Origin: a virus
IMG/VR virus record: IMGVR_UViG_3300009159_000033
Length of the DNA: 64,000 nt
Reading direction: 5' to 3' (one strand)
Shown here: in pieces, positions 1,591 to 61,413 of the stretch
How the letters are laid out: each line of letters starts with the position of its first letter
How positions within the stretch are numbered: the stretch's first letter is position 1
Notes under the pieces: generated by a model
The model's database searches: none
What the model saw: only the letters and a program-made list of their open reading frames with translations
Told to the model about the DNA's origin: nothing
Position numbers and translations under genes: made by a program

Positions 1591-4500
1591 ATGCTTCCAC
1601 TTTCATCTAATTTGTTTGATTCTTCTAATCTCTCGTTGCTAGGGAATACACCTCCTTTAGCACAGCCGATGCAGCCATTGCCACCCGCAACTCCATTGCC
1701 TAGCTTTCATGAATTTCATGACACTAAGAAGGTCAGATCTATTATCTACGATAGAGTGCTGCAAGCAGCTCAGCAGCTACAGCCTATGGCTAATGATCGG
1801 CATACGCTTAGTTTAACTGGAGTAAATTACCGTGATGGTGATACCGCTAGCAAACAGGAGCAGAAAGCTGCCATTCTTAATGGTAGATCCCAAGGACGTA
1901 GGCTAGAAGGTACTTGGGAGTTAATGGATAACGCAACACAACAAGTAATCGCTTCTAAGAAATCAGTTCTTGCCACTGTGCCTCACTTGACGGATCGTGG
2001 CACCTTTATCAACAACGGCACTGAGTACATTCTAAGAAATCAACAGCGGTTATTGCCCGGAGTTTACACCCGCACACGGAACAATGGTGAAATTGAATCC
2101 CATGTTAATGTGATGCCTGGGAAAGGTGTATCACAGCGTTATTTCTTAGATCCCGAGAAAGGCAAATTTAAGCTTAAGGTTGGGCAAGCTTCAGTTGGAT
2201 TAACTCCTTTGTTAAAAGCTATGGGAGTTACCTCGGAGCAGGCGCAGGAAGCTTGGGGTAAAGATCTATTCGCTTCTAATTACAATTCGGATGATGCATC
2301 CGAATACACACGGCTTAAAGGCATGTTTCTTTCTTCTAAAGAACTAGCTGAGCCAGAAGAAAAACAAAAACAAGCATTGCTTGCTAAGTTTTCTAAGATG
2401 GAAATGGATCCCGAGGTAAATCGTCGCACGCTGGGAAACCCACATTCAGGTGTCACACTAGACACATTGATGGACATTACTAAAAAGCTGATAAAGGTTA
2501 ATAGGAAAGAAGCGGATCCGGATGACAGAGATGCACTTCACTTTCAGCAATTTGTAGGTCCAGAAGATTTGTTTTCAGAGCGTATTGCCCGAGATAAAGG
2601 CGGGGTACGACGTAACCTACTTTGGAAGATGTCGGGCAAAGGTGATTTAAACTCAATGCCATCTTCTGCTTTAGACAAACAGGTGAAAAGTGCTTTGCTT
2701 GGCAGCGGGCTGGGACAAGCTATTGAAGAAATTAATCCTACAGACATTTATGAAAAGACAATGTCTGTTACTCGAGTAGGTGAGGGTGGTATTGGTTCTA
2801 TGGATGCAATTCCCATGGAATCCAGAAATGTACAGTCAAGTATGCTGGGTTATGTCGATCCTGTGCGTACTCCCGAGTCGGGTCGTGTTGGGGTGGACAC
2901 TTATCTGGCTAGGGGATCTCGTAAGGGAAGTGATGGTAAGCTCTATGCTCAGTTTAAGGATATGCGTAACGGGGAAATGACTTTTAAAACTCCTCAAGAT
3001 GTAGCAGACCTAACTGTCGGTTTTCCCGGAAGCCAAGAAGGCGAAGATGGCCGTGTAGTGGCGATGCGTGGCGGTAAGATGTTACATGTACCTAAATCAA
3101 GCATTGATTTAGAGCTTCCTGACATGGAAGAAGCATTTAATCCTCTTTCCAATGTTATCCCTATGAAGAGTCAGGTAAAGGGTCAGCGATTAGTTATGGC
3201 ATCTCGTATGACTACACAAGCATTACCTTTAGCTTCTCCCGAAGCTCCTTTAGTACAGTCAGCGGTTCCCCGCACAGGTGGCAAACAAAGTTATGAAGAG
3301 CTATACTCGGCTGGGATGGGAGCTTTAAGAGCTTCCCAAGGGGGCACAGTTACCTCCGTGACAGATGAAGAGATTAAAGTGCGGAATGAAGATGGAACCG
3401 AGGAAACGCACGAACTTTATCACAACTTTCCTTTTAATCGTAAAACCTTTTTTCATCAAACCGCTGCAGTTCAACCTGGCGACACATTTAAGCCAAACCA
3501 GTTGTTAGCAAGTTCTAACTTTACAAACAAGACAGGAACAATGGCTTTAGGTACAAATGCACGTACCGCTTATATCCCATGGCAGGGTAAGAACTTTGAA
3601 GATGCAATTGTCATCTCAGAAAGTTTTGCAAAGAAGACAGCCTCTTCTCATATGTATCAGCATGAGCTGGAAGTGGATGACAAAACACAAGTTGGTAAAA
3701 GACAATTTATTCAAGCATTTCCAGCTACATTCAAGAAAGACATATTAGCGAACATAGATGATCAAGGAGTGATCAAACCAGGCACAGTAGTTAATTTTGG
3801 AGATCCTTTGGTACTAGGGATTACACAAAAGGAAAATGCATACAACAAGGTACATAAGAAGGGTCAAGCCGGGTTCAACGATGCAGCCGTACTTTGGCAG
3901 CATCACGATACTGGTGTTGTTACTGATGTGGTGATGGGTAAGAAGGGTCCGGTCGTTGTAGTTAAAGCAGAATCTCCAACGCAAGTTGGTGATAAGTTAT
4001 CTGGTCGTTATGGGGACAAAGGTGTTATTGCGGACATTATTCCAGATAGCGAAATGCCACACGATTCAAATAAGTTACCTTTTGAAGTGCTGCTTAACCC
4101 TCTTGGTATTATTAGTCGAACTAACCCTGCTCAAATGTCTGAATTGTTTCTAGGTAAAATAGCGGCTAAGCGTGGTATGCCGATTAAAGTAGATGATTTT
4201 GATACTAAAAAAGATATGACTCAATGGGTCATGCAAGAACTGGCTAAAGAAGGTTTGTCGGACTTAGAAGACATTATAGACCCATCTAAAGAACAAAAAA
4301 TTAAAAATATAGCAACTGGTAGTCGTTTCTTTATGAAGCTACATCATACTTCTGAGTCTAAAGGACAAGGTAGGAGCGGTGGTGCTTACACGATGGAAGA
4401 TGCCCCAGCCAAAGGTGGCATTGAAGGTTCTAAGCGTATTGGGCTAATGGATGCTAATGCCTTGCTATCTCACGGAGCCACGGACACACTGCAAGATATC

Positions 4501-6057
4501 TTCACAGTTAGAAGGCAGAAGAATGATCAGTATTGGATGCAGTACATGTCGGGGTATAACCCTAAAGTTACTAAGGTTCCTTTTGCTTATCAGAAGTTTG
4601 TAGCCCAGTTACAATCTGCTGGTGTTAATGTAGTCAAGCAGGGAACGCAGACTCAGATTATGGCATTAACGGACAAGGATATCGATAACTTAGCTGGGGA
4701 TCGTGAGCTTAGCAGTGCCGATGGAGTGGAGTGGGGCAACCAGCTTAAAGAGATTAATGGTGGCTTGTTTGACAAGGCTAAGACCGGCGGGCATGGTGGC
4801 ACTCGATGGTCGTTTATGCGTTTGCACGAACCTTTACCTAACCCAGTAATGGAAGAACCTATCCGTCATATGCTTGGGCTAACACAGAAAAAGTTTGAAG
4901 GTATTGTGGCTGGCACAGAATTTTTAGAGAAATATGGAACCGGTACGAAAGCGTTACAAAAAGCATTAGCAGATCTTAATCCTGCTGCAGAAATTCCTAA
5001 AGCTCGGGCTATTATTGCGGCGGGTAGAGGGGCTCAGCGGGATGAGGCAATTCGTAAACTTGGTTATTTTAAATCGGCACAGAAACTTAATTTGCAGCCT
5101 GCAGACTACATGCTGACCAAAGTTCCAGTTCTTCCCCCAATGTTTCGTCCAGTTAGCTTGATGAGCAACGGCATGCCATTGGTTAACGATGCTAATCACC
5201 TTTACAAAGAACTGTTTGAGGCTAATCAGAATTTTAGCAAAATGCAGCAAGAAGTAGGGGAAGAGGCTTCGGGATCGGAGCGTCTTTCCACCTATCAAGC
5301 ATTTAAAGCGGTGACTGGTCTAGGAGATCCGATTAGTGCAAAAAGCCAAGAGAAGAATGTTCGTGGGGCTTTAAAAAATGTGTTTGGTGCAAGTCCTAAG
5401 TTTGGGATTGTGCAACGTAAACTGATTTCTTCTACAGTAGACAATGTGGGCCGAGCGGTAATTACTCCAAATCCGGAATTGGACATGGACTCGGTAGGGC
5501 TACCCGAAGACAAGGCATTTAAGGTCTATGAGAAATTTGTTACTAGAAGATTGGTGCGACAAGGCATGTCTATGCTACAGGCTCGTACTCAATTAGAAGA
5601 TAAGACTCCAGTAGCACGCAAGTTCTTGCTTGAAGAGATGGAGCATCGTCCTGTATATATTAGTCGTGCTCCTGTTTTGCATAAGTTTGGGATTATGGCA
5701 ATGAGACCAAGATTGACTAAAGGAAATACCTTACAAGTGAGCCCTTTAATTGTAAAAGGGTTTGGTGCTGACTTTGATGGCGACACCATGAACTATCATG
5801 TGCCAAGTACGGAAAAAGCTAGGCAAGAGGCTTTTGATCGTTTGTTACCTAGTCGTAATCTTTTTAGCATAGGGGATATGAAATCTGTTATGCATGCCCC
5901 TGCTAATGAATACATTGGGGGTTTGTTTATGGGTACAGATCCTTCTCGTAAATCTGATCGACCAGTACGGATTTTTCAGAACATACAAGATGTAAGGCGA
6001 GCACATGCGCGCGGAGATATTTCAATCAACGATCCGGTACGAATTTTAAATGGGTAG
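1591..6057 (+). CDS. rpoBC: Phage multisubunit RNA polymerase: beta fused to N-terminal half of beta' (carries the catalytic DFDGD)
   Basis: RpoB motifs GTFINNGTEY..QQRLLPGVY, DPVRTPESGRVG, AYIPWQGKNFEDAIVISE, GDKLSGRYGDKGV, LLNPLGIISRTN, MKLHH; after ~4650 RpoC motifs GGLFD, VPVLPPMFRP, VDNVGRAVI, SRAPVLHKFGI, GADFDGD (5764-5784). Confidence 0.96.
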   Translation: MLPLSSNLFDSSNLSLLGNTPPLAQPMQPLPPATPLPSFHEFHDTKKVRSIIYDRVLQAAQQLQPMANDRHTLSLTGVNYRDGDTASKQEQKAAILNGRSQGRRLEGTWELMDNATQQVIASKKSVLATVPHLTDRGTFINNGTEYILRNQQRLLPGVYTRTRNNGEIESHVNVMPGKGVSQRYFLDPEKGKFKLKVGQASVGLTPLLKAMGVTSEQAQEAWGKDLFASNYNSDDASEYTRLKGMFLSSKELAEPEEKQKQALLAKFSKMEMDPEVNRRTLGNPHSGVTLDTLMDITKKLIKVNRKEADPDDRDALHFQQFVGPEDLFSERIARDKGGVRRNLLWKMSGKGDLNSMPSSALDKQVKSALLGSGLGQAIEEINPTDIYEKTMSVTRVGEGGIGSMDAIPMESRNVQSSMLGYVDPVRTPESGRVGVDTYLARGSRKGSDGKLYAQFKDMRNGEMTFKTPQDVADLTVGFPGSQEGEDGRVVAMRGGKMLHVPKSSIDLELPDMEEAFNPLSNVIPMKSQVKGQRLVMASRMTTQALPLASPEAPLVQSAVPRTGGKQSYEELYSAGMGALRASQGGTVTSVTDEEIKVRNEDGTEETHELYHNFPFNRKTFFHQTAAVQPGDTFKPNQLLASSNFTNKTGTMALGTNARTAYIPWQGKNFEDAIVISESFAKKTASSHMYQHELEVDDKTQVGKRQFIQAFPATFKKDILANIDDQGVIKPGTVVNFGDPLVLGITQKENAYNKVHKKGQAGFNDAAVLWQHHDTGVVTDVVMGKKGPVVVVKAESPTQVGDKLSGRYGDKGVIADIIPDSEMPHDSNKLPFEVLLNPLGIISRTNPAQMSELFLGKIAAKRGMPIKVDDFDTKKDMTQWVMQELAKEGLSDLEDIIDPSKEQKIKNIATGSRFFMKLHHTSESKGQGRSGGAYTMEDAPAKGGIEGSKRIGLMDANALLSHGATDTLQDIFTVRRQKNDQYWMQYMSGYNPKVTKVPFAYQKFVAQLQSAGVNVVKQGTQTQIMALTDKDIDNLAGDRELSSADGVEWGNQLKEINGGLFDKAKTGGHGGTRWSFMRLHEPLPNPVMEEPIRHMLGLTQKKFEGIVAGTEFLEKYGTGTKALQKALADLNPAAEIPKARAIIAAGRGAQRDEAIRKLGYFKSAQKLNLQPADYMLTKVPVLPPMFRPVSLMSNGMPLVNDANHLYKELFEANQNFSKMQQEVGEEASGSERLSTYQAFKAVTGLGDPISAKSQEKNVRGALKNVFGASPKFGIVQRKLISSTVDNVGRAVITPNPELDMDSVGLPEDKAFKVYEKFVTRRLVRQGMSMLQARTQLEDKTPVARKFLLEEMEHRPVYISRAPVLHKFGIMAMRPRLTKGNTLQVSPLIVKGFGADFDGDTMNYHVPSTEKARQEAFDRLLPSRNLFSIGDMKSVMHAPANEYIGGLFMGTDPSRKSDRPVRIFQNIQDVRRAHARGDISINDPVRILNG

Positions 6058-6129
6058 GCAATATATCTCTATCCTAGATTTTGATTAGAACTTAGAATCA
6101 TAAGATGAGATCACACAAGGAGTATGTTT

Positions 6130-6852
6130 ATGGCAGTTAATTTGGAATTGTTAAAGATGGCCCGACAACATGTAGGAAAACGCCATCTATCTAAATATGC
6201 ATTTGTTGCAGCAGGTGACCCAGCTATGGGTGCTCCTATGCCTTCTGGCGGTGCTCCTCCTATGGATCCTTCCATGGGTGGCGGTGCTCCACCTCCTGAC
6301 CCTTCAATGGGTGGTGCTCCTCCTATGGATCCTTCTATGGGCGGTGGTGCTCCTCCTATGGATCCTTCTATGGGTGGTGGTGCTCCACCTCCTCCCCCTA
6401 TGGACCCAATGGCAGCAATTATGCCAATGGTTCAACAGGCAGTACAACAAGCAATGTCGGCTAATGGTGGTGGGCAACCGCAAGGTGCGGGCCCTGGGCT
6501 TAAACCTAAAATTGACATAAATGTTGAAATTGTACAAATTAAAAAGATGCTTGCTAAAATTATTGATGCTCTTGGTATCCATGTGCCTGTGTCTGATATG
6601 GTGGTAACACCCGAAGATTTAAACCAGATTGCACAAGGTGGACCAGGCTTGGCAGCAGCTACTCCCGATGGTAAGTCGGGTGGCGGTCTTGGGCAGATTG
6701 CCCCTATTTCTCCGATCAAGGCTGCTGAAGCGTGGGAAAGTGGCACAGCTTTTAGTTTATCAGCTGACTACTATCCTCAGCAGCCTTCTAATAAAAATGG
6801 CAGTGTAGCTGCAATGGCTACTGCTCTTTTAATGCGTAATAATAACAAGTAA
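6130..6852 (+). CDS. Low-complexity Gly/Pro/Met-rich protein, putative head/scaffold-associated
   Basis: AAGGAG at 6117-6122 favours ATG 6130 over 6124; GGAPPMDPSM repeats; KYA and KAA motifs; no Cys. Confidence 0.65.
   Translation: MAVNLELLKMARQHVGKRHLSKYAFVAAGDPAMGAPMPSGGAPPMDPSMGGGAPPPDPSMGGAPPMDPSMGGGAPPMDPSMGGGAPPPPPMDPMAAIMPMVQQAVQQAMSANGGGQPQGAGPGLKPKIDINVEIVQIKKMLAKIIDALGIHVPVSDMVVTPEDLNQIAQGGPGLAAATPDGKSGGGLGQIAPISPIKAAEAWESGTAFSLSADYYPQQPSNKNGSVAAMATALLMRNNNK
6226..6410 (+). repeat. Coding tandem repeat (G)GGAPP(M/P)DPSM, about 5 imperfect copies
   Basis: Repeated ggtgctcctcctatggatccttctatg units visible in the DNA. Confidence 0.85.
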
Positions 6853-6865
6853 AGGGGTTCAGCGT

Positions 6866-7090
6866 ATGTTCATCGTGGAGGTTATTGAAAGTATTGGTAA
6901 GCCTCCACTTAGGATACCTGCTTCGCAGGTTGTAGTTCGAATGCAAGATGGTACTCCAGTAAGTGTAGCTGCACTTTTTGGAAGTGCTACTAGTGTGATG
7001 GTATCTCATTGTGAAGATGCTAATTTCAATGATAATTTGCGTAAACTAGGTATCAACGAAACCGTTATTTCTACTAAAGTACAGGTGTAA
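6866..7090 (+). CDS. Small hypothetical protein
   Basis: 74-aa ORF preceded by AAGGGG; tiles between neighbours. Confidence 0.55.
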   Translation: MFIVEVIESIGKPPLRIPASQVVVRMQDGTPVSVAALFGSATSVMVSHCEDANFNDNLRKLGINETVISTKVQV

Positions 7091-7091
7091 T

Positions 7092-7664
7092 ATGGACTCT
7101 TCTTTACGATCTTCTGACTACTACTACCGAGACCGAAAACCAGAGGTTATTCCCGAGATTGTTCCTACTCCTACTTATCAACAATCCTCTAGTATAAACT
7201 CTTCTAACAATAAGTATTATGCCGAGATGGGACCACTTGTTGCAGAAGATGTCCCTCTTATTGCTAAGCTTCAGATGCCTCCGAAAGAAGTAGAATTGGA
7301 GATACTTGATGGTTGCTATGGCCTAGCTACCATACAAGCTGCATTTGAAGACGGAGCCACCCGCATCATAGTTAAAGCCTATGACTATGTAGTGACTCAA
7401 CTGCAAGTTGCTGTAGACATGTCAGTGGGTCGTGGAGAATTAACACGAGAGCAAACAGACTCTATAGTTTTTGTTGTCTTAGCCCCAGAAGCTATTCTTA
7501 GCCCAGAAGAAGTAGCTCTACCTATTGTAGATATGCCAGAGGCGACTGCTGTTTTAAACGAGGCTCCTAAGCCATCTCGTAAAAAAGCAAAGCGTGGCAA
7601 GAGTGAGGAAATTACTCTTAAAGATATCGAAGCTGCCTTTGGTGGTGACGATAGTGACGACTAA
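7092..7664 (+). CDS. Hypothetical acidic protein
   Basis: 190-aa ORF tiling the gap before the second RNAP gene. Confidence 0.55.
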   Translation: MDSSLRSSDYYYRDRKPEVIPEIVPTPTYQQSSSINSSNNKYYAEMGPLVAEDVPLIAKLQMPPKEVELEILDGCYGLATIQAAFEDGATRIIVKAYDYVVTQLQVAVDMSVGRGELTREQTDSIVFVVLAPEAILSPEEVALPIVDMPEATAVLNEAPKPSRKKAKRGKSEEITLKDIEAAFGGDDSDD

Positions 7665-7705
7665 AATCCAGATTTTAAATAATTTGCACACTCTGAGAAC
7701 TATCC

Positions 7706-10700
7706 ATGTTGAATACGACCGTTGGACAACTGTTAATTAATGATGTCCTTCCGGAAGAGTTGAGAGACTCCCATCGTGTGCTAGACAAAAAAGGGTTGCA
7801 ATCTTTACTACAGCAAGTGGCGCGGCAGCACCCAGAGAATTACCGAGATATATCTTTTAAGCTAAGTAATCTTGGTCAAAGTATAGCACAAGAGCAGGGT
7901 GGTATGTCGTTTGGGCTTCGTCACATGCAAGTAAGTAAATCTGCAATAGCTTCCCGCCAGAAGGTTAGAGCTTCTCTTACTAATATCCTAGCTGACGATT
8001 CTTTGACAGACCAAGAGCGAAACGAGCAGATTATTCGTGCAGTTGGCAAGGAAAGTCCAGAACAGCAAAAACAAATACTTGCAGAAGCGTTAAAAGACAA
8101 GAACCCTCTCGGTATGCAGGTTATGTCGGGTACCCGTGGTAAGTCTATGAATCTAACTAGTTTGTTAGGTTCAGACATGCTGTATTCGGACCAGCGTGAC
8201 GATGTAATTCCAATTCCTGTGCTGCGAAGTTACAGCGAGGGGCTGTCTCCTGCCGAGTACTGGGCTGGAACCTACGGAGCACGCAAAGGCATTATGGCAA
8301 CTAAGTTTGCCACACAAGATGCTGGATTCTTTAACAAACAACTTAATCAAACTAGTCATAGATTGGTAGTCACCGGAGAAGATGCCGAAGAGGCAGACGA
8401 CGCACCTATCCGTGGATTAGTGGTGGATACTGATGATCCAGACAATGAAGGGGCATTGCTAGCTCGTAATGTTGGTCCTTACGCTAGAAATACTCCACTT
8501 ACTCCAAAAATACTGAATCATTTAAAACGGCTTGGTACACCTAAAATCTTAGTGAGATCTGCCCTAGTGGGCGGGTCTCCCGATGGCGGTGTTTATTCTA
8601 GAGATGTAGGTATTAGAGAAACTGGAAAGCTGCCTGGGCTTGGCGAGCAAGTTGGGTTACAGGCTGCCCACGCTTTAAGTGAACCGATTAGCCAAGGTCA
8701 GTTATCTGCAAAGCATTCGGGGGGCGTGGCCGGACAAGAAAAAGCTGTTAGCGGTTTTCAGTATTTAAACCAATTAGTACAAGTTCCTAAGAAAATGCAA
8801 GGAGGGGCAGCCCACTCGTTAATGGATGGAGTGGTGCAGCGTATTGAAGAAGCCCCTGCGGGCGGGAGCTATGTCACCATTGGGGATAAACAACATTATG
8901 TAGGGGCTGGGTTTGAGCTTAAAGTAAAAAAAGGAGATGAGGTAGAGGCTGGTGATGTAATTAGTTCAGGAATTCCTAACCCAGCAACTATTACCGAACA
9001 TAAAGGAATTGGAGAGGGTAGGCGGTATTTTGTTAATGAGTTCCGCAAGGCGATGGGTGACAGCGGAATGTTTGGGCACAGACGTAATATTGAGGTGTTA
9101 GCCCGAGGTCTTATCAACCATGTAAGGCTGACAGAAGAAACAGATGACCATGTGCCTGACGATGTTGTTCCTTACTCTACGCTTGAACACACATACAAGC
9201 CACGAGAAGACCACCAGCGGTTAACTCCTAAGCGTGCATTAGGACAGTATCTAGAGCGCCCTGTACTGCACTACACTATTGGGACCAAGATTCGACCTTC
9301 TATGCTTAAGAATTTTGAAGATTTTGAAATTAATGAAATTCCAGTGCATAAGAACCCACCGCCATTTGAACCAAACATGGTTCGTGGGTTGTATCAAATG
9401 CAACATGATCCCGATTGGATGACACAAATGTATGGGTCTGGTCTAAAGAAAAGCTTCTTAGACTCTGTGACTCATGGGGCTATCAGCGAAGAACGAGGTA
9501 CAAGCTTTGTTCCAAGCTTAGCAATGGGTCTTGATTTTGGAGAAGGTAAAAACCATGCGGTAATAAAACCTCAGCCTAGTTATGAGCTACCGGCATTACC
9601 TCCACTTCCTCCCCCTATTCCTTCTACTCCTGCTGCGGCAAAGCCTACAGCTCCTAGCAGTGCTCCTTTTTTTGGCGGGCGTTTTACCCCTGGGCAAACT
9701 AAGCTAGGATTAGATAGCACACCTTCTGTGTCTAAGCCACCTTCTGTCTCTAAGCCACCTGCTGTAACCAGTATGTCACCAGTTTCTAAGCCTCTTAATA
9801 CAAACATTATGCCTTCTCCTACTCCAGCCCCCAAAACTGCACCGACTACCCCAAGTTCAAACCAATTTAGTAACTTGATGCAAAACGATACTTTTGCACA
9901 GCAAACTGGTCAGATGTTAAACGGAGCAGATCCTACAAGTGCACTTATGATGCTAGGAGGCATGGCAGGGGGTAGTAATAACATGTCTCAGTTATTTAAC
10001 TCTGGGCCTTCGCAGCGATTAGCCACAAGCGGTAGTGGCGGTGGAATGTTTGGTAATTTGTTTAATATGTTTGGGAATAACAATCAAAATGGGCAATCAA
10101 TTATGCCCAGTGGAGATTACAACTCAGCTACAAATCAAGGCGGGATGTTGAGTAGTAACACATCTGCGGAATCTGCACCCGCATCTTCAGCAGAAGCAGT
10201 TCCTGCAGAGGCTACATCAAAAGCTGGTCCAGATATATTTACAGCTGTAGATCATGCACCGGCGGCCTATACCGCTATAAAAAATACAATCGTACCGCCT
10301 AAGGCATTACCTACTCCCCCTGCGCCTACTGCACTAGTGCCTAAAGCACCGCTACCTACAGCTCCAGCACCTATTACCCCTACTCCACCGATACCCAAAG
10401 CACCAATACCCAAAGCACCAATGCCAGCTGCACCAATACCAGCTGCACCCGGAGGTTTACTTAGTAAAGTAATGCCAGCAGTTTCCACGACTTACAAAAC
10501 ATTGGCTAAAGCAGCCCCTGGTATTGGAATAGCTTTAGAAACTGGGAGTGTCGGTTACGATGTTTACAATAAGGGTTGGGATAACACAACTAACGACGCA
10601 GCACAAAATATAAGAAACATTGCTTCAGGTAAAGATGGGTTGCACACATTGTGGCAAGCTCCTGTTCAAATTTTAAACCCAGTGGCTAACGCACAGCTAA

Positions 10701-11425
10701 TAGCAGGCGGTACAACTCAGACTGCACAGATGATTGGGGAGCAAGCTGGGATAGGTGCTGAAGCTATTCGAGATAAAGTAACTGGAACTGATGCTATTTC
10801 TCGTGCATCGGTTGTGGACAAATCAAAAGTTAACGCAATGGAAGTAGCAAAGCAAAAAGATTTAGAAGCACAAAAAGCTAAGCTTCAGCAAGAGTCGCAA
10901 AATACAAATATCATGGCTCCCTCCATGATAGAACAAAATAAACAAGAGCAAGCTGGCATCGATGCACAAATAGGAGACGCTAAAACTAGACAAGAAAATA
11001 CGGCAGACGAAACAGCTAAGTGGAGATTAGGTCAGCAGAATTGGTTTGGGAGTGGCGGACACAAATTCCGAGATGCCATGCAAAATTCGGTTGCAGCTAC
11101 GGACACAGAGCTAGCAGATTTAAAAGCTAAAGGTGAATTAGATGCAGTAGGTCAAGCACGGCAGGAGCAGTTATTAAATAGACAGGCGCAGCGTAAGGCA
11201 ATGCTGGGTACTTATGACCGAGAAAGCGGTTCCTCGGGTAAGGGATTATTCAGCAAGGATATACGCAATCGGGTTAGCGGTCTTAAAGAAAACATTGTGG
11301 CAGTTACTGCACAGCTTCGAGATACTTCTCTTCCTCCTGAACAAAGGGCAAAGCTAGAAGCCCAATTGAAAACTAATAACGAGGACCTTGCTGAGTACCG
11401 AGGATGGGCAGAAAGTTCTAAATAA
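7706..11425 (+). CDS. rpoC: RNA polymerase beta' C-terminal half (~7706-9545) fused to a ~625-aa Pro/Ala/Ser-rich and coiled-coil extension
   Basis: NTTVGQLLIN (cf. TTVGR), MSGTRG (cf. SGARG), bridge helix SYSEGLSPAEYWAGTYGARKG..ATQDAGF, trigger loop GLQAAHALSEPISQGQLSAKHSGG, sandwich-barrel hybrid VKKGDEVEAGDVI, RRNIEVLARGL. Confidence 0.93.
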   Translation: MLNTTVGQLLINDVLPEELRDSHRVLDKKGLQSLLQQVARQHPENYRDISFKLSNLGQSIAQEQGGMSFGLRHMQVSKSAIASRQKVRASLTNILADDSLTDQERNEQIIRAVGKESPEQQKQILAEALKDKNPLGMQVMSGTRGKSMNLTSLLGSDMLYSDQRDDVIPIPVLRSYSEGLSPAEYWAGTYGARKGIMATKFATQDAGFFNKQLNQTSHRLVVTGEDAEEADDAPIRGLVVDTDDPDNEGALLARNVGPYARNTPLTPKILNHLKRLGTPKILVRSALVGGSPDGGVYSRDVGIRETGKLPGLGEQVGLQAAHALSEPISQGQLSAKHSGGVAGQEKAVSGFQYLNQLVQVPKKMQGGAAHSLMDGVVQRIEEAPAGGSYVTIGDKQHYVGAGFELKVKKGDEVEAGDVISSGIPNPATITEHKGIGEGRRYFVNEFRKAMGDSGMFGHRRNIEVLARGLINHVRLTEETDDHVPDDVVPYSTLEHTYKPREDHQRLTPKRALGQYLERPVLHYTIGTKIRPSMLKNFEDFEINEIPVHKNPPPFEPNMVRGLYQMQHDPDWMTQMYGSGLKKSFLDSVTHGAISEERGTSFVPSLAMGLDFGEGKNHAVIKPQPSYELPALPPLPPPIPSTPAAAKPTAPSSAPFFGGRFTPGQTKLGLDSTPSVSKPPSVSKPPAVTSMSPVSKPLNTNIMPSPTPAPKTAPTTPSSNQFSNLMQNDTFAQQTGQMLNGADPTSALMMLGGMAGGSNNMSQLFNSGPSQRLATSGSGGGMFGNLFNMFGNNNQNGQSIMPSGDYNSATNQGGMLSSNTSAESAPASSAEAVPAEATSKAGPDIFTAVDHAPAAYTAIKNTIVPPKALPTPPAPTALVPKAPLPTAPAPITPTPPIPKAPIPKAPMPAAPIPAAPGGLLSKVMPAVSTTYKTLAKAAPGIGIALETGSVGYDVYNKGWDNTTNDAAQNIRNIASGKDGLHTLWQAPVQILNPVANAQLIAGGTTQTAQMIGEQAGIGAEAIRDKVTGTDAISRASVVDKSKVNAMEVAKQKDLEAQKAKLQQESQNTNIMAPSMIEQNKQEQAGIDAQIGDAKTRQENTADETAKWRLGQQNWFGSGGHKFRDAMQNSVAATDTELADLKAKGELDAVGQARQEQLLNRQAQRKAMLGTYDRESGSSGKGLFSKDIRNRVSGLKENIVAVTAQLRDTSLPPEQRAKLEAQLKTNNEDLAEYRGWAESSK

Positions 11426-22805: not shown

Positions 22806-23753
22806 ATGGCTAATTCTAGTATCATGACTCAAGAAGAAAGCAAACTTCTTAGTCAAACGATTTTTGAAAAATTGGCTTCCCGTGACTCTAACCTAGAAAA
22901 GCAAGCTGTTGACGCTGTCAACGACTTCACTAGGACCAAGATGCGTGAAGATGGCTTTTACAGACGTATTATGCCACCAATCCCACTTAGCAATGATGAT
23001 CTTGATCGTCAAGTCGATACCGACAAACCTGTAAAGATCGTGGACAAAGAACCAGATTCTCCAGCAGCAATCTCGATTCCTTTTGCCACGCTTCCTACCA
23101 ACTTGTACATCCGTGGTGATAGGTACCGAGTTACCTTTGACCGCATCGTGACCCCTAAATTCACGAAGGATGTGGATGAACTTCGTACATGGCATATGGA
23201 TATAAGACAAATCCTATCCGATAATGCCATAAAGGATATGTTAGCGGAAGAAGATGGCAAATTTATTTCTGCGGTCAACACTGCTCTTGTTGGCGCAGGA
23301 ACAACTGTTCCTACTTCTGGAGTAATCCAGTACAAGCAGCTTAGCGGTGGGGTAACCCGCAGCAACCTGTGGGACAGCTTTAAGATTATGCCAGGCACTC
23401 CTTCTAATCTTGAAGTTCATTCCGTTTTGCTTAATAACATCACTATCAAAGAAGTTGCCAAACTCAATCGTAATGATATGGGTGGCGATCTTAGTGAAGA
23501 GATTATGCGTAATGGTTGGACCTACAGCGAATTTATGGGTGTTCAGTGGATCATCACTATTAAGAAGGGACTTGTCCCAACTGGTACGATGTATCATTTC
23601 GCTGACCCTAAATTTATCGGCAAGAGCTACCTCATTGAAGACACCACGATGTACATCCGTCGTGAAGCTTACTTCATTGAATTCTTTGCTTATGAAACCT
23701 TAGGTGGCACCATTGGTCATACCTCTGGTCTTGCTAGGGTTGACTTTACCTAA
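22806..23753 (+). CDS. Major capsid protein (HK97-fold)
   Basis: Strong AAGGAGG SD; follows protease-scaffold-decoration genes; 315 aa; HK97-like pattern (MREDGFYRRIMPP..IVTPKFTKDVDELR..AIKDMLAEEDGKFISAV); followed by a terminator. Confidence 0.8.
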   Translation: MANSSIMTQEESKLLSQTIFEKLASRDSNLEKQAVDAVNDFTRTKMREDGFYRRIMPPIPLSNDDLDRQVDTDKPVKIVDKEPDSPAAISIPFATLPTNLYIRGDRYRVTFDRIVTPKFTKDVDELRTWHMDIRQILSDNAIKDMLAEEDGKFISAVNTALVGAGTTVPTSGVIQYKQLSGGVTRSNLWDSFKIMPGTPSNLEVHSVLLNNITIKEVAKLNRNDMGGDLSEEIMRNGWTYSEFMGVQWIITIKKGLVPTGTMYHFADPKFIGKSYLIEDTTMYIRREAYFIEFFAYETLGGTIGHTSGLARVDFT

Positions 23754-24292: not shown

Positions 24293-25525
24293 ATGAAACT
24301 AAGCTTGTTCACGCCCACGCACAAACCTGCCTATCTAGTTGAGGCTTACACCTCCTTAAAATTGCAGACACTTACCGATTGGGAATGGGTTATTCTGCCT
24401 AATGGCAAAAATGTCACAATCCCCGAGGTTATACGCAAGGATCCAAGAGTAAAGCTGGTAACTACTAATAATAACTCGCACAATATTGGGGCCTTAAAAA
24501 GAAGTGCCTGCGACGCTGCTACTGGAGATATCTTTGTTGAGTTCGATCACGATGACTTATTTGCACCGGGTAATAGTCTGCAGATAATACACGATAAGTT
24601 TAAATCTGGTGCTGATTTTGTTTATTCAGATACTGCGGTATTTAGACAAAAAGATGTAGTCAAAAATGACATTAAGTTTAGCCCTTTTACTTACTCTTCG
24701 CAGCATGGTTGGCAAGAATACGATATTAAAGTTTATGGTCACAAGTTAAAAGCTACTCGTTGCTTTTCAATATCTCCTCGGTCTTTATGTGAAATATATT
24801 ATTGTCCCGACCATGTGCGTAGTTGGTCTCGCAAAGCTTATTACAAGGCAGGTGGGCACAACCCAGAGCTGTCGGTATGTGATGATCATGAGTTGATGAT
24901 CAAGACCTACATAAGTGGGGCTAAATTTGAGCATACGGGTGGTTGTCATTACCTATATCGGATGTTTTCTGACAATACGGTGTGGGCACGAAATCAATTA
25001 ATTCAAGACACTAGCCTAAGTTTACGTAAGCAATACATGCCACAGCTGATACAAGCTTGGTTGAAGCAAAATAACTTGGCAGTACTAGACATTACTAAGC
25101 TTAAATCAGAAGGTTGGAATGCGGATAGGCAGCTGTTGCAAGGCTTTGGCGAAGATAGTTATGGGCATATTGTTGCAGATACTGAATTACAGTGGTTGAC
25201 TGGTGTTCAAGTTCGAGAGTTTATGAATGTGGCCTATGCTGCTTTAGTCCCCGGCGGGTATCTGACAATTACTGTACCCGAGGTGCATTCTGGAATGGGT
25301 TATGGAGATGTAGAGTGGCAGTCCCATTTTAGTGCGGTAAGTATGTACCCATACACCCGCAATAACTTTGCTAAAAGTAATGGCAATATTGATTGTAGAT
25401 TCCAGCAGATTAATTGTTTAGAAGTTTTTCCTTCAGACTGGCACAGAGACAATAACTTTAAATTTCTACGCTTTGAGCTTGTAGCTTTAAAAGGGCAGCG
25501 ACACCCCGGCTTACAGCATATTTAG
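24293..25525 (+). CDS. Family-2 (GT-A) glycosyltransferase with a C-terminal SAM-methyltransferase-like segment
   Basis: SLFTPTHK..SLKLQTLTDWEWVIL, GDIFVEFDHDDLF, CDDHEL; C-terminal REFMNVAYAALVPGGYLTITVP. Confidence 0.8.
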   Translation: MKLSLFTPTHKPAYLVEAYTSLKLQTLTDWEWVILPNGKNVTIPEVIRKDPRVKLVTTNNNSHNIGALKRSACDAATGDIFVEFDHDDLFAPGNSLQIIHDKFKSGADFVYSDTAVFRQKDVVKNDIKFSPFTYSSQHGWQEYDIKVYGHKLKATRCFSISPRSLCEIYYCPDHVRSWSRKAYYKAGGHNPELSVCDDHELMIKTYISGAKFEHTGGCHYLYRMFSDNTVWARNQLIQDTSLSLRKQYMPQLIQAWLKQNNLAVLDITKLKSEGWNADRQLLQGFGEDSYGHIVADTELQWLTGVQVREFMNVAYAALVPGGYLTITVPEVHSGMGYGDVEWQSHFSAVSMYPYTRNNFAKSNGNIDCRFQQINCLEVFPSDWHRDNNFKFLRFELVALKGQRHPGLQHI

Positions 25526-45757: not shown

Positions 45758-46495
45758 ATGATGGACGATTATTTAGAAGACGAATATAAACCAGCATTTC
45801 AAAGCTGGCAGCAGAATCAAACACCAGAAGGCAACGCTGCCTTACTGAAAGCACTTGATCCAATAGTACAAAAGGGGGTCAAGATGTATGGGGCAGATAG
45901 CCCATTAACTTCTAGCCGTGCCAAGCTTTTAACATTGGACGCAGTGCGTAAGTACGATCCTAAGCGGTCTCGGTTACAGTCTCATTTATTAAACCAAATG
46001 CAAGGGCTGCGTAGGATCAACCAACAGCAACATCAAGTAATAAGCGTACCCGAACGCATATTACTAGAGAATCAAAGGTTACATGGATCCACACAAGAAC
46101 TGTCAGATGAGCTTGGTCGAGAGCCTACTGACGCAGAACTGTCAGATAAATTAGGGATAGCTATGCCTCGACTTGCAAAGATTCGGAGTTATCAACCCGG
46201 AGTTAACACAGGAAGACTAGATGCAATTGACCCATTAGCGGGCGGTGCTCCAAGTGTAATTCCTAACCAACAAGCCAGCGCAGATCTATGGGGCGAAGTG
46301 GTTTACCAAGGACTTAGTCCTTTAGACCAGCGTGTCATGGAACTGACTTTGGGAATGCGTGGAAATAAAAAACTATCGAATCAAGAGATTGCAGCTAAGC
46401 TTAATCGCAGCCCAGGTGCGATTACCCAGCGTAAAACTAAGATACAGCAATTGCTGGATCAAGAACAAAAATTATCCCCTTTCCTTGCGAGATAA
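45758..46495 (+). CDS. Sigma70-family sigma factor (regions 2, 3 and 4), divergent
   Basis: LDAVRKYDPKR (region 2.2-2.3), ELSDELGREPTDAELSDKLGI (region 3), LSPLDQRVMELTLG..LSNQEIAAKLNRSPGAITQRK (region 4 HTH). Confidence 0.85.
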   Translation: MMDDYLEDEYKPAFQSWQQNQTPEGNAALLKALDPIVQKGVKMYGADSPLTSSRAKLLTLDAVRKYDPKRSRLQSHLLNQMQGLRRINQQQHQVISVPERILLENQRLHGSTQELSDELGREPTDAELSDKLGIAMPRLAKIRSYQPGVNTGRLDAIDPLAGGAPSVIPNQQASADLWGEVVYQGLSPLDQRVMELTLGMRGNKKLSNQEIAAKLNRSPGAITQRKTKIQQLLDQEQKLSPFLAR

Positions 46496-57006: not shown

Positions 57007-57960
57007 ATGCCATTATCTCAGTGGAATTTAGATTTTCTAAATCATAACTCGCAGCGTAGCTATCCTTTAACCTCGGAAGCAACTAGGCGAGATGTTACCG
57101 CTTCGTTTGAAATACCAAACGACTTTCTTGTTGGGTTAGACTTGCCGGTATCTCCAGCCATGGATATGGAAACTGGACGATTCTTTATACGCCAGCTTGG
57201 TTTATTCTCTTCTGGTATTCAACTAATTATTGCTTACGACACCGGTACTAGTCTTATCGATGTAGCTACTGGCTTAATCTCAACAATTGATCCTATACGC
57301 AACAAAGTTTTTGCGATCAATGGCATAGGTGCGTATACAGATATAAGCGGTAAAGTAATTATTGGCCGTGTCGATACCATTCAAGAACAACCCAGCGGTC
57401 TGTTTTCATTTACTATTGAAGGTACGAGAATAGAGCCACAAGCTATTCGCCCTATGATTAAAGGAATATCTTCGCTACGCATCTCTTCCGCTGTAGGTGA
57501 TGTCAGCCAAAACTTCTATGGAGACATTGAGCTGGTAGCTGGGTCTAACATTCAACTTTCTACTGCAATAAACGGGTCAGAAACTAAAATCATCATAAGT
57601 GCACTAAGCGGAGAAGGCACCCTTGAGCAATGCATCTGCGAAGGAGAAGCCGCTGCTATTCCTTGCATCAAGACTATTAACGGAATTAGTCCAACTACAA
57701 CCGGTAACTTTAATTTTATCGGGGATGACTGCTTACAGTTTAATCCTGTGACAAATGGGCTTAAAGTTACTGATTCTTGCTGTACCCCTTGCTGTGGTTG
57801 CGAAGAGTTAGAAGCAATTACCAGAGATCTTGAACGCTTTGCAACACAGCGTAATGCGTTAGAACTATTTGTTAACCAGTTGGCAGCAGAAACAGCTACT
57901 TTTGATATGACTGTTCTTGGTTCGAGGCTTGGAGATCGCCGTTGTTTAACTTGCACATAA
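57007..57960 (+). CDS. Cys-rich tail paralogue 1
   Basis: NSQRSYPL..PNDFLVG; IKTINGISP..GNF; CCTPCCGC followed by a coiled coil. Confidence 0.6.
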   Translation: MPLSQWNLDFLNHNSQRSYPLTSEATRRDVTASFEIPNDFLVGLDLPVSPAMDMETGRFFIRQLGLFSSGIQLIIAYDTGTSLIDVATGLISTIDPIRNKVFAINGIGAYTDISGKVIIGRVDTIQEQPSGLFSFTIEGTRIEPQAIRPMIKGISSLRISSAVGDVSQNFYGDIELVAGSNIQLSTAINGSETKIIISALSGEGTLEQCICEGEAAAIPCIKTINGISPTTTGNFNFIGDDCLQFNPVTNGLKVTDSCCTPCCGCEELEAITRDLERFATQRNALELFVNQLAAETATFDMTVLGSRLGDRRCLTCT

Positions 57961-57963
57961 ACT

Positions 57964-59637
57964 ATGAGTAATACAAGAGGAAGACAACCTGTTGGTTTAA
58001 ACCAGCCCCCTAGTGGCGGGTCTGCTTATCCGTTTGTATCCCCTTCTGATGATGTTCTATATTTATTAGCTGATTTATTTCTATCATTTGACGATATCTA
58101 TGACAATTTTGTTTATCCTCTACACATTGCTTGGATGCATGGATTTGGCGATATCAGCGTTACACCTCCAGAAGGTTGGCCTGCGCCTACGCATACCCAT
58201 GATCTTGTAATACTAGATGCAACCAATGTAATAGTATTTAATTCTACCACCGCAACTCGCTTCACTACGGAAGTGTGGGATAACCGTTTATTAATTCTTG
58301 AGTGGACTAGTCAACATAGTGTATGTCGCTGCAGTCTGCACACAGAGTGGACAGAGTCAGATATCATTGATGGGCAGTCTCGTAGTTATAACAATTACAT
58401 TGTTCCTGAGCGAGGTGAGCTACAACCTGACACATGGTATAAAATACCTAAACGAGTATTATCTATTCGGGTAGGTTTAACCCAAATTACAAAAAGCAGT
58501 GTAACCTTAGCAGAAGGTTACAATATGCAGATTTCAAAAAATGAAGCTCCTACCGATATTAACTTTAACACTTTAGGAATATTAGGATTACAACCAACTA
58601 AACCTCTGGTAAAAGGCACACGAGTTACACAAAAGCTATTGTTAGAAGCAGTACCATCAGCTGGGCTAGGTATATTTCCAAGTTGTGTAGATCAAGAAAA
58701 AGTAATTCGAACAATTAATCAGGTGCGAAGTAACACACATCAAAATTTTACTTATGACAGCGAAGGGTGTATAAGGGTTCAACGACCTGTAGCACTAGCC
58801 TCACCTACTCCTCGAGTTTTTAGCTATGGAGCTGTAGGATTGCCCACCTCGGCAGCCGCTGGTTCTGCCCTTCTTGTAAGTAATGATTGTACTAACTGTT
58901 GCGACTGCCTCTACTTTGCACAGACTTACCAAGGATTAAAGCGACAGTGGTTTTTATTTAGAAGCACAGCAAGAACTGCAGAAACAGTTCGAGATAGGTA
59001 TGCCCAAAACAAAGCACGATGGCTAGTTCAAAAGCAGATACGAGAAGCTAATGTGCTGCGAGTGCGTATTTCTTTAGATGGTAATTGTAAAGTTAGATGG
59101 GGAATTGCGTTTTGTAACGCAAGTAAGTGCTGCCTTACTAATGTTACAGTATATTTAACTTGGCTACAGTATCTTAATGGCGTGGTACAAACACCTATTC
59201 GGCCTCAGTTTGATTGTCTTCCTGTCCTACTAGATGGGGATGGTCAATGTGATGGGCCGGTTCCTATCGTATCCGATCAAACAAACGCTAGGGGTGATGT
59301 ATCCAAGTTTACTTGGGATTACAGCAATCCACAAACGGTTACAACTTTATATGGCCGACACTGCATGCCAGATTGTAAAGACTATCCTGACGGAGCATTA
59401 AAATTTAAATTACATGTAGCTATCACATGGGGTGCGGCACTTAAAGATCCTGCAACTGGGGAAGTTTGTGTGTTTCCAGAAACTCAGTATTCTGAAATTT
59501 CAGAAGAAGTTCAAAATATATGGGAAACTTCTTTAGGAATGGCTTTACCTACAAATATAAAAGACCAAAAAGTAACTCCGTTGACAGTAGCTGACCGCTC
59601 AAATCCATATTGTCGCCGTTGCAGTTGTGTGGACTAA
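57964..59637 (+). CDS. Cys-rich tail paralogue 2
   Basis: AYPF..LLAD; IRTINQV..NF; DCTNCCDC followed by a helix. Confidence 0.6.
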   Translation: MSNTRGRQPVGLNQPPSGGSAYPFVSPSDDVLYLLADLFLSFDDIYDNFVYPLHIAWMHGFGDISVTPPEGWPAPTHTHDLVILDATNVIVFNSTTATRFTTEVWDNRLLILEWTSQHSVCRCSLHTEWTESDIIDGQSRSYNNYIVPERGELQPDTWYKIPKRVLSIRVGLTQITKSSVTLAEGYNMQISKNEAPTDINFNTLGILGLQPTKPLVKGTRVTQKLLLEAVPSAGLGIFPSCVDQEKVIRTINQVRSNTHQNFTYDSEGCIRVQRPVALASPTPRVFSYGAVGLPTSAAAGSALLVSNDCTNCCDCLYFAQTYQGLKRQWFLFRSTARTAETVRDRYAQNKARWLVQKQIREANVLRVRISLDGNCKVRWGIAFCNASKCCLTNVTVYLTWLQYLNGVVQTPIRPQFDCLPVLLDGDGQCDGPVPIVSDQTNARGDVSKFTWDYSNPQTVTTLYGRHCMPDCKDYPDGALKFKLHVAITWGAALKDPATGEVCVFPETQYSEISEEVQNIWETSLGMALPTNIKDQKVTPLTVADRSNPYCRRCSCVD

Positions 59638-59658
59638 CTATTTAATGGGATTGATAGT

Positions 59659-61413
59659 ATGCCGATTCGTAACAATCATTGGTACAACCTTAACGAGCAG
59701 CGCTACTATCCGCTGGACGATACTGCGTCAGCTTGTTCAGATGCTGGTGAAGTATTACCAGGCTCTTTGATTGCAGACATGCGTTTATGCTGGCCCGCCC
59801 AGTATGGTAAATATGCTTTCGTCAGTGCTGCAGCTTCCACCCCCGGCCTAGTTACCGTACTCATTGAAGCTACAAACACACTAGATAACAACCCAAGTAC
59901 TTCTGTACTAATTGCAGGTATAACTCTTCCAAAATCTGAGTTGATTGGGGGAAGAACTTATGCCCTAACTGCATTTAAATCTGGAGTTGGAGGATTCATT
60001 GTACTTGGAACTAATTTAGATGAAAACTATTCTGGCCGGTTTAGTTCTCCGGCTCAGTCTTTACTAACTCCTAGAGCAGCTAGACCTAATCGGATTGCAC
60101 CTATCCCCTCAATCAAAGTTGACGATGCTGCTACCGCATTATCCGGCTTAGTTAATTTAACTGCAGCTGCACCTTTACAGCTAACCAAAGAAACTCGAGT
60201 TATTAATGGAGTAGAATACTCTAATGTCGTTGTTTTTAGCTTAAAAGAAGAAGAGCAAGTAACTGTAGGTGCAGCAGCTGAATCAGTTTTAGCCACTTTT
60301 GCGGGTCCTTGTGGGAAGCGAACTGGGTCTAAGACTTGTACTGACCCCCAGCCAGTACAGTTTATTAATGGTGTAGCACCTGATTGTGACGGTGTGATTA
60401 CCATAGACTTTCAAGGATGTGCGGTTGTCGGTAGAAATACAAAAGACTGCGGTGTCATTCTTGATTGTTCTTTGGGCTTGTCTGCCAGCTGTTCTCCGCC
60501 TTATCTGCCTACGCTGAGCACTGGCAAGCTACCTAGCGAAACTCCTAGAGTCATTATCACTCCTCCAGCTCCTCCAACCCCTCCGGTTATCATTGATGTT
60601 AGTATCAGTGAATCAGTAAAAACTGTATTAACTTTACCTTATTGCGATACTTTTGATGAGATGGTTGCTGTTGGATTTTATCCCATGGGAGATTCGTTGT
60701 TTGATTTTATTTCTGATGACAGCCCTGCTGAAAATGATTGCTGCGTAGGGGCTCTTACTAATTATGGTTGCGACATGTCTGTCTCTATCTCATCCTCTAT
60801 TGATTATGGCATGTCTTATTCTTTATCTAATTCTAATTCTATGTCTTATTCAATAGCTACTGTTCCCATATTACGAAGCGTAGAAATTGCTAGCAGTTAT
60901 GCCACAATACAGCCTAACGCACAAGCTCGTACTAACATTTCTATATGGACGATGGATGTGCAGTCTCTGTATCGCAAATACACCACAGATCTTAAAATTA
61001 CAAATGGGCAGTTGGGAAGTAAAAAAAATGCAGGAATCGTTGTAAATTACCGGCAAATACTACCTAACGTGGTCAACTATCTAGTAGCAACGCTAGACAT
61101 TGACACTAGTACTTTTGGAATATATTTCTTTAATGGTTTGTTTCTTGTACCAATTGTTACAACTTCGGTATCAAAAGCTAGGACAGACGATTGGTACCGG
61201 ATTAGTTTTACTGTTATTCCTAACAATATTACACAGACTAGCATACAGCTAATCGCAGTTTTGACAGGAATTACAGACCCAACTATTGCCACAGTGCTTT
61301 CTACCTCAATATCTGCTAATTTATGGCAAACAGATGCGGGTAACGCAGGGTTTTACGCTAAACGTTCTCGTAGCTATTTCTCCTTCTGGAGAGTGGAGGA
61401 AGCCGAATTATGA
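59659..61413 (+). CDS. Cys-rich tail paralogue 3 with a C-terminal beta-sandwich (lectin-like) region
   Basis: NEQRYYPL..PGSLIAD; VQFINGVAP; Ser-x tract; GNAGFYA near the C-terminus. Confidence 0.6.
   Translation: MPIRNNHWYNLNEQRYYPLDDTASACSDAGEVLPGSLIADMRLCWPAQYGKYAFVSAAASTPGLVTVLIEATNTLDNNPSTSVLIAGITLPKSELIGGRTYALTAFKSGVGGFIVLGTNLDENYSGRFSSPAQSLLTPRAARPNRIAPIPSIKVDDAATALSGLVNLTAAAPLQLTKETRVINGVEYSNVVVFSLKEEEQVTVGAAAESVLATFAGPCGKRTGSKTCTDPQPVQFINGVAPDCDGVITIDFQGCAVVGRNTKDCGVILDCSLGLSASCSPPYLPTLSTGKLPSETPRVIITPPAPPTPPVIIDVSISESVKTVLTLPYCDTFDEMVAVGFYPMGDSLFDFISDDSPAENDCCVGALTNYGCDMSVSISSSIDYGMSYSLSNSNSMSYSIATVPILRSVEIASSYATIQPNAQARTNISIWTMDVQSLYRKYTTDLKITNGQLGSKKNAGIVVNYRQILPNVVNYLVATLDIDTSTFGIYFFNGLFLVPIVTTSVSKARTDDWYRISFTVIPNNITQTSIQLIAVLTGITDPTIATVLSTSISANLWQTDAGNAGFYAKRSRSYFSFWRVEEAEL

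Follow-up and report, generated by a model that had tools for sequence, protein, structure and literature searches.

Published structural work describes the N-terminal zinc domain of the β′ subunit as common to all multisubunit RNA polymerases (RNAPs). Among phage enzymes, N4-type polymerases are already known to follow a cysteine (Cys)-free rule, AR9 to have lost the N-terminal β′ zinc ribbon, and Salmonella phage Arash to have a fused RNAP associated with its virions. Here we describe the RNAP genes found in a 64,000-nucleotide stretch (the window) of IMGVR_UViG_3300009159_000033, an IMG/VR phage record of 172.7 kb with a CheckV completeness of 84%. The two RNAP chains encoded in the window lack both β′ zinc sites and contain no Cys, and the loss of both sites is conserved across their clade. 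In the literature, no paper was found on a multisubunit RNAP without both zinc sites and all Cys, on its large metagenomic clade, or on the contrast with inteins reported below. A paper on a moraphage (PMC12619734) was considered as a candidate description of this phage and rejected, as no RNAP genes are reported there.

Like the enzyme described here, gp50 of N4 and other Schitoviridae is a large polymerase with Cys fully suppressed, as it is in the partners ejected along with it. In N4, gp50 (3500 amino acids [aa]), gp51, and gp52 contain no Cys, compared with about 1.4% in the DNA polymerase and helicase, and in T7, gp15 and gp16 contain none, compared with 1.4 to 2.7% in T7 enzymes. Published work on the Schitoviridae describes suppression of Cys in the ejection operon and proposes passage through the periplasm, with its disulfide enzymes, as the reason. 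However, gp50 is a single-chain, T7-like polymerase of unrelated fold, whose ancestors carried no zinc sites that could have been lost. Phages phiKZ and AR9 are similar to the phage described here in having β and β′ homologues without α, with one set packaged and injected, but their RNAPs are cut into 4 to 5 chains and there are two sets per genome. In phiKZ, the virion RNAP has 16 Cys in 2614 aa and the nonvirion RNAP 33 in 2850 aa; virion gp80 differs from the enzyme in the window in keeping the motif of the second β′ zinc site (EDC..TC..CAVC), and the nonvirion RNAP keeps the ribbon, whereas the nonvirion enzyme of AR9 is without it, as is the enzyme in the window. Cellular RNAPs (Escherichia coli, Thermus, and cyanobacterial γ/β′) are homologous along β and β′, with the DFDGD loop, bridge helix, and trigger loop intact in both, but they possess both Cys4 zinc sites (E. 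coli β and β′ together have 22 Cys), require α2, and have β and β′ as separate chains.

The first RNAP gene of the window (positions 1591 to 6057, plus strand) is a β::β′N fusion encoding P0001 (1488 aa), in which the reading frame of a full β continues uninterrupted through the N-terminal half of β′, catalytic loop included, as judged by translation and Pfam. Pfam matches to Rpb2_6 (1.4e-50), Rpb2_3, Rpb1_1, and Rpb1_2 (1.2e-23) were obtained, and phmmer searches against PDB chains matched β at 1e-67 and β′/γ at 1e-45. The catalytic motifs are intact: the Mg loop DFDGD (5770 to 5784, plus strand, within GADFDGD) falls in alignment columns D394 to D398, which are invariant, and P0001 carries both RYGDKGV and GADFDGD, features of the bacterial-type β/β′ catalytic center (reference β′ loop NADFDGD; β double-psi barrel). 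The second gene (7706 to 11425, plus strand) encodes β′C, P0002 (1239 aa), assigned by Pfam and phmmer. Its core (residues 1 to 620; 7706 to 9565, plus strand) comprises the bridge helix, the trigger loop, and the C-terminal clamp/jaw part, matching Pfam Rpb1_5 (1.2e-18) and, by phmmer against PDB, Streptomyces β′ (7e-36). An AlphaFold2 (AF2) model of this core had a predicted local distance difference test score (pLDDT) of 83.4, with Foldseek template modeling scores of 0.70 to 0.73 to bacterial β′, while a model of the β′N part (pLDDT, 70.8) matched E. coli β′ residues 17 to ~489 with a Z score of ~20. The enzyme is thus predicted to be a bacterial-type two-barrel, two-chain RNAP with its active center intact. 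The record yielded a single β match, and hence one RNAP set; no match to α (PF01000) was found in this record, which is 84% complete, and α could be host supplied. The chain boundary (6057/7706) cuts β′ no more than a few tens of residues from the split between rpoC1 and rpoC2 in cyanobacteria and plastids, and the top PDB matches of the β′N part are cyanobacterial γ subunits.

The N-terminal Cys4 ribbon of β′ is missing from this enzyme. Window positions 4759 to 4833 (plus strand) encode P0001 residues 1057 to 1081, GGLFDKAKTGGHGGTRWSFMRLHEP, the junction left by the ribbon deletion (GGLFD..TGGHGG..RWS..LHEP). Using MAFFT, a 32-column gap relative to E. coli RpoC was found here, covering C70, C72, C85, and C88, and there is no Cys elsewhere in the chain. 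The junction motif GGLFD..TGGHGG..RWS..L.EP is kept in 120 fused-chain homologues and was modeled as a strand preceded by a short loop (pLDDT, 74 to 88).

The second β′ zinc site (site II) is regarded as a near-constant structural feature of bacterial RNAP, needed for β′ folding and assembly. In the MAFFT alignment to E. coli and the phmmer alignment to Streptomyces β′, E. coli ligands C814, C888, C895, and C898 face P0002 residues A227, G289, Y297, and D300 (codons 8384 to 8386, 8570 to 8572, 8594 to 8596, and 8603 to 8605), so that the former site (8384 to 8605, plus strand) holds no Cys and now reads as part of a conserved motif, VGGxPxGGVYxRDVG. An earlier sequence-only reading of the window had claimed that the N-terminal zinc domain was deleted at 4759 to 4833 and that every site II Cys was replaced, and the alignments bear out both claims, including the coordinates of the deletion. 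In an exhaustive HMMER search, 4203 relatives of the β′C core were obtained; the best 150 cluster representatives, sharing 48 to 75% identity, were examined, and their site II residues were mapped by pairwise BLAST. None of the 150 had a Cys at any of the four positions, most reading x-[GS]-[YFL]-D. Across 32 aligned sequences, D300 and G294 were invariant and G289 and Y297 at least 90% conserved, and the AF2 model around the former site had a pLDDT of 87 to 93.

The invariance of D300 at the fourth ligand position, with H218 invariant nearby and a His in the TGGHGG loop of the ribbon junction, might be read as a sign that zinc is still bound, with His, Asp, or Glu replacing Cys. This is very improbable, as a possible ligand is offered by just one of the four positions. 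The first is hypervariable (A, G, D, S, R, P, Y, E, T, or a gap), the second is Gly or Ser, and the third is Tyr, Phe, or Leu. Moreover, Arash and Vibrio phage D69 have a His aligned with H218 despite an intact Cys4 site, and the loop His is a Pro in both.

The nearest isolates are Arash (Gp206 and Gp216) and Vibrio phages D69, D148, and D181, with about 26 to 30% identity. A megablast search with window positions 1 to 25000 against isolated phages gave no match, and no cultured member of the window's clade was identified in the collections searched. As in the window, Arash and D69 have β fused to β′N and β′C encoded by its own gene, which begins near the TTVG segment, an identical 32-residue ribbon deletion, almost no free Cys, and the RNAP genes placed before the capsid gene in a preserved order. 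However, site II is retained as CCCC in all 120 β′C sequences of the Arash clade, compared with 0 of 150 in the clade of the window, which separates the window as a distinct subclade. As site II is present in bacteria and in the Arash clade, its loss in the window's clade is derived. In 113 of the 120 Arash-like β′C sequences there are exactly four Cys, the ligands only, and Arash-like phages would on these alignments represent an intermediate stage, with the ribbon and the free Cys gone and site II kept. The two clades differ further in that Arash-type β′C is ~606 aa and without a long tail, whereas that of the window's clade usually has a long, variable tail, and in that the Arash portal gene is just upstream of the RNAP genes, whereas the portal homologue of the window's phage is distant.

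The absence of Cys extends well beyond the zinc ligands. P0001 (0 of 1488 aa) and P0002 (0 of 1239 aa) together contain none in 2727 aa, while the genome mean is 1.35% (749 of 55,384); the binomial probability of finding zero Cys is 9e-10 for P0001 and 3e-8 for P0002. A count per open reading frame (ORF), which the sequence-only reading had proposed as a check, ranked the two chains second and third most Cys depleted of 210 ORFs, with only a 2044-aa tape-measure-like protein above them. Both RNAP genes are also Cys free in four IMG/VR relatives with 75 to 95% identity. Among the β′C homologues, 16 Cys were found in 92,370 aa of aligned core and 40 in 70,949 aa of tails, compared with 462 in 21,620 aa of intein-like insertions; in the β::β′N homologues, the aligned core had 34 in 169,265 aa and the insertions 232 in 9,987 aa. 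The Cys share is thus ~0.02% in the mature cores and 2.1 to 2.3% in the inserted inteins, and the near-total suppression relative to the phage proteome that characterizes ejected proteins is seen clade-wide as well as in the window.

The insertions have intein boundaries (CLAxGT at the start and VSN at the end, followed by S) and LAGLIDADG/Hint Pfam matches, and the residue after each listed β′C insertion is Ser, not Cys. In β′C, the bridge helix and trigger loop of many relatives are interrupted by one or two inteins, at the positions of P0002 residues ~201/209 and ~333, and the fused chain of some relatives carries inteins too. These inteins start with Cys (CLAxGT) and hold nearly all the Cys of the proteins concerned; the window's own two RNAP genes are intein free. 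As the inteins are Cys rich and the mature cores nearly Cys free, selection acts on the mature protein, and a compositional or mutational cause was ruled out by the same contrast, Cys being excluded from the mature protein only. Met is not depleted in the RNAP chains (3.1 to 3.8% versus 2.55%). Since it is enriched rather than avoided, the pressure is thiol specific and not directed at oxidizable residues generally, and a general avoidance of oxidation was judged the weaker explanation. The purge of every nonligand thiol across the family, with the inteins as an internal control, is a stronger signal than the loss of zinc ligands, and the loss of site II would be its last step. The sequence-only reading had ranked ligand loss as the stronger signal, an order that has to be reversed, while its caveat that the capsid protein and the putative scaffold are also without Cys holds for both proteins.

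The RNAP probably travels in the phage head and enters the host together with the DNA, to begin transcription there. In Arash virions analyzed by liquid chromatography-mass spectrometry, Gp206 had the highest spectral count (3516) and Gp216 a count of 1210. Gene order in the window is as in Arash, with the RNAP genes followed by gp218-like and gp222-like genes, the capsid protein gene, and then tail and baseplate genes, as found by tblastn to Arash and D69. The head module was assigned from these tblastn matches together with one weak PHROG match, as most neighboring ORFs remained unnamed in searches of PHROGs and Pfam. The major capsid protein (22806 to 23753, plus strand; 315 aa, 0 Cys) matched Arash gp226 by tblastn (29% identity, 4e-33) and the PHROG major head protein (2.8e-4). 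The putative scaffold, a 399-aa ORF lying upstream of the capsid gene, also has no Cys.

Several observations weigh against delivery of the enzyme with the DNA. The Arash virion preparation contained 116 proteins, and its authors allow for carry-over of abundant enzymes; both RNAP chains have been shown in virions only for Arash. In the phage described here the portal homologue is ~44 kb from the RNAP genes rather than adjoining them, and with no second RNAP set found, this Cys-free enzyme must also function in the cytoplasm. Some probably structural proteins are Cys rich, the ORF matching Arash structural protein gp222 having 12 Cys. The restriction of virion evidence to Arash, the single RNAP set, and the distant portal would also suit an enzyme that is not packaged and owes its lack of Cys to another pressure, such as host redox stress, thiol-targeting defenses, or zinc or sulfur economy. 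We regard this as quite unlikely, as Met is enriched, other ORFs of the genome reach 20 Cys, the Cys-free set includes particle proteins (capsid and tape-measure-like), and the Arash enzyme is abundant in virion preparations.

A further difficulty for delivery as the cause of zinc-site loss is that phiKZ virion gp80 and Arash gp216 retain site II, consistent with delivery without its loss, and that the nonvirion AR9 RNAP lacks the ribbon. Delivery thus does not depend on zinc-site loss, nor is such loss restricted to packaged enzymes, and with the ribbon kept in the nonvirion phiKZ enzyme, the presence of the sites in known phage multisubunit RNAPs shows no correspondence with packaging. This pattern would be expected if the sites had been lost for reasons internal to transcription: the sigma/spacer contacts, RNA exit channel, and termination control of the ribbon may be dispensable with the phage's own promoters, and site II may have drifted once neighboring residues had assumed its structural role. 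Such an origin is unlikely, as it leaves unexplained the absence of all other Cys, the retention of exactly four ligands in Arash-like β′C, and the normal Cys levels of inteins in the same genes. The sequence-only reading had taken the loss of zinc as an adaptation of the enzyme to unfold and cross the envelope. Of this proposal, the part concerning a virion-carried enzyme gains indirect support from the Arash virion proteome, the gene order, and the Cys-free ejected proteins of N4 and T7, whereas loss of zinc as such is neither necessary for nor specific to delivery.

The sequence comparisons establish the loss of both zinc sites, the conserved thiol purge, and the integrity of the catalytic motifs. 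Packaging, delivery, and the selective reason for the thiol purge are what we infer from the above, and the following sequence of events would account for the findings. A two-chain core would be packaged in the head and delivered with the DNA, perhaps together with a phage sigma-like protein, the β-β′ fusion possibly substituting for α-mediated assembly. Delivered proteins would be under strong selection against thiols, driven by the need to avoid disulfide cross-links in the particle or periplasm, by cofactor-free refolding after passage through the tail channel, or by both. In a first step, the N-terminal ribbon and every free Cys would have been removed, a stage at which Arash-like phages would still be; in a second, the four site II ligands would have been replaced by a Gly-rich motif with a conserved Tyr and Asp.

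Other parts of the RNAP locus are also Cys free. The β′C tail (9566 to 11425, plus strand; ~620 residues) is fast evolving, its composition being Pro-rich and Gly/Asn/Met-rich low complexity followed by a K/E/Q/A-rich C-terminal stretch, and BLAST similarity to it was detected in just 2 of the 150 representatives. No transmembrane-like segment was seen in the tail. Total β′C length among relatives ranges from 643 to 2577 aa, with inteins accounting for part of the spread. Between the RNAP genes lies an ORF (6124 to 6852, plus strand) whose translation is a Cys-free, 242-aa Pro/Met/Gly-repeat protein with PPMDPSMGG-type repeats and 8.7% Met. An ORF of similar size with 0 Cys occupies this position in relative loci L005 to L008, and an ORF is present there in L017 to L020 too.

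Among the remaining ORFs, the most Cys depleted of the genome (36249 to 42383, plus strand; 2044 aa, 0 Cys, p = 2.8e-13) encodes a K/E/A-rich repeat protein that, on sequence inspection, is probably the tape measure. It has ~100-residue tandem repeats and one Trp, and both AT and GC skew are extreme in the DNA encoding it. A candidate sigma factor (45758 to 46495, plus strand; 245 aa, 0 Cys) matched Pfam Sigma70_r3 at 26.7 bits (cutoff, 25.3), with a weak region 4; a six-frame search scored 24 bits, below the cutoff, and no match to Sigma70_r2 (PF04542) was found in the record, so that the sigma call is based on a borderline region 3 match. A SNF2/Helicase_C protein (record positions 88182 to 89705; 507 aa, 1 Cys) is a homologue of Arash Gp217, which was detected in virions, and a Nudix-domain protein (record positions 95865 to 97013; 382 aa) has 0 Cys. 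Directly after the capsid gene region, positions 24293 to 25525 encode a glycosyltransferase of family 2 (Pfam, 1.5e-11), the C-terminal part of which weakly resembles a methyltransferase. At the far end of the window, ORFs at 57007 to 61413 are Cys rich (11, 20, and 13 Cys), in sharp contrast to the head-side proteins.

The Cys-poor SNF2/Helicase_C and Nudix proteins may belong to the same delivered set as the RNAP. It is possible, and we suggest it tentatively, that the zinc-free RNAP core, the sigma-like factor, the SNF2-type helicase, and the Nudix protein, with little or no Cys, form a complete early-transcription kit whose unfolded chains, packed in the head, are threaded into the host. 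If so, a tailed phage would be using a strategy like that of poxviruses, and Cys suppression, from which inteins are exempt, could mark the ejected proteome of uncultured phages from sequence alone.

A large natural clade in which site II has given way to a conserved Gly/Tyr/Asp motif, and which is thiol free, indicates that metal-thiolate sites are dispensable for building a bacterial-type RNAP, and the clade is a ready template for testing the contribution of the zinc sites. The three-way contrast between mature chains (~0.02% Cys), inteins (>2%), and a sister clade with ligands only is an unusually clean signature of anti-thiol selection. The rule for N4-type ejected proteins, so far known only from unrelated single-chain polymerases, would thereby be extended to a different enzyme class, and the Cys signature could help to predict the injected proteins of uncultured phages.

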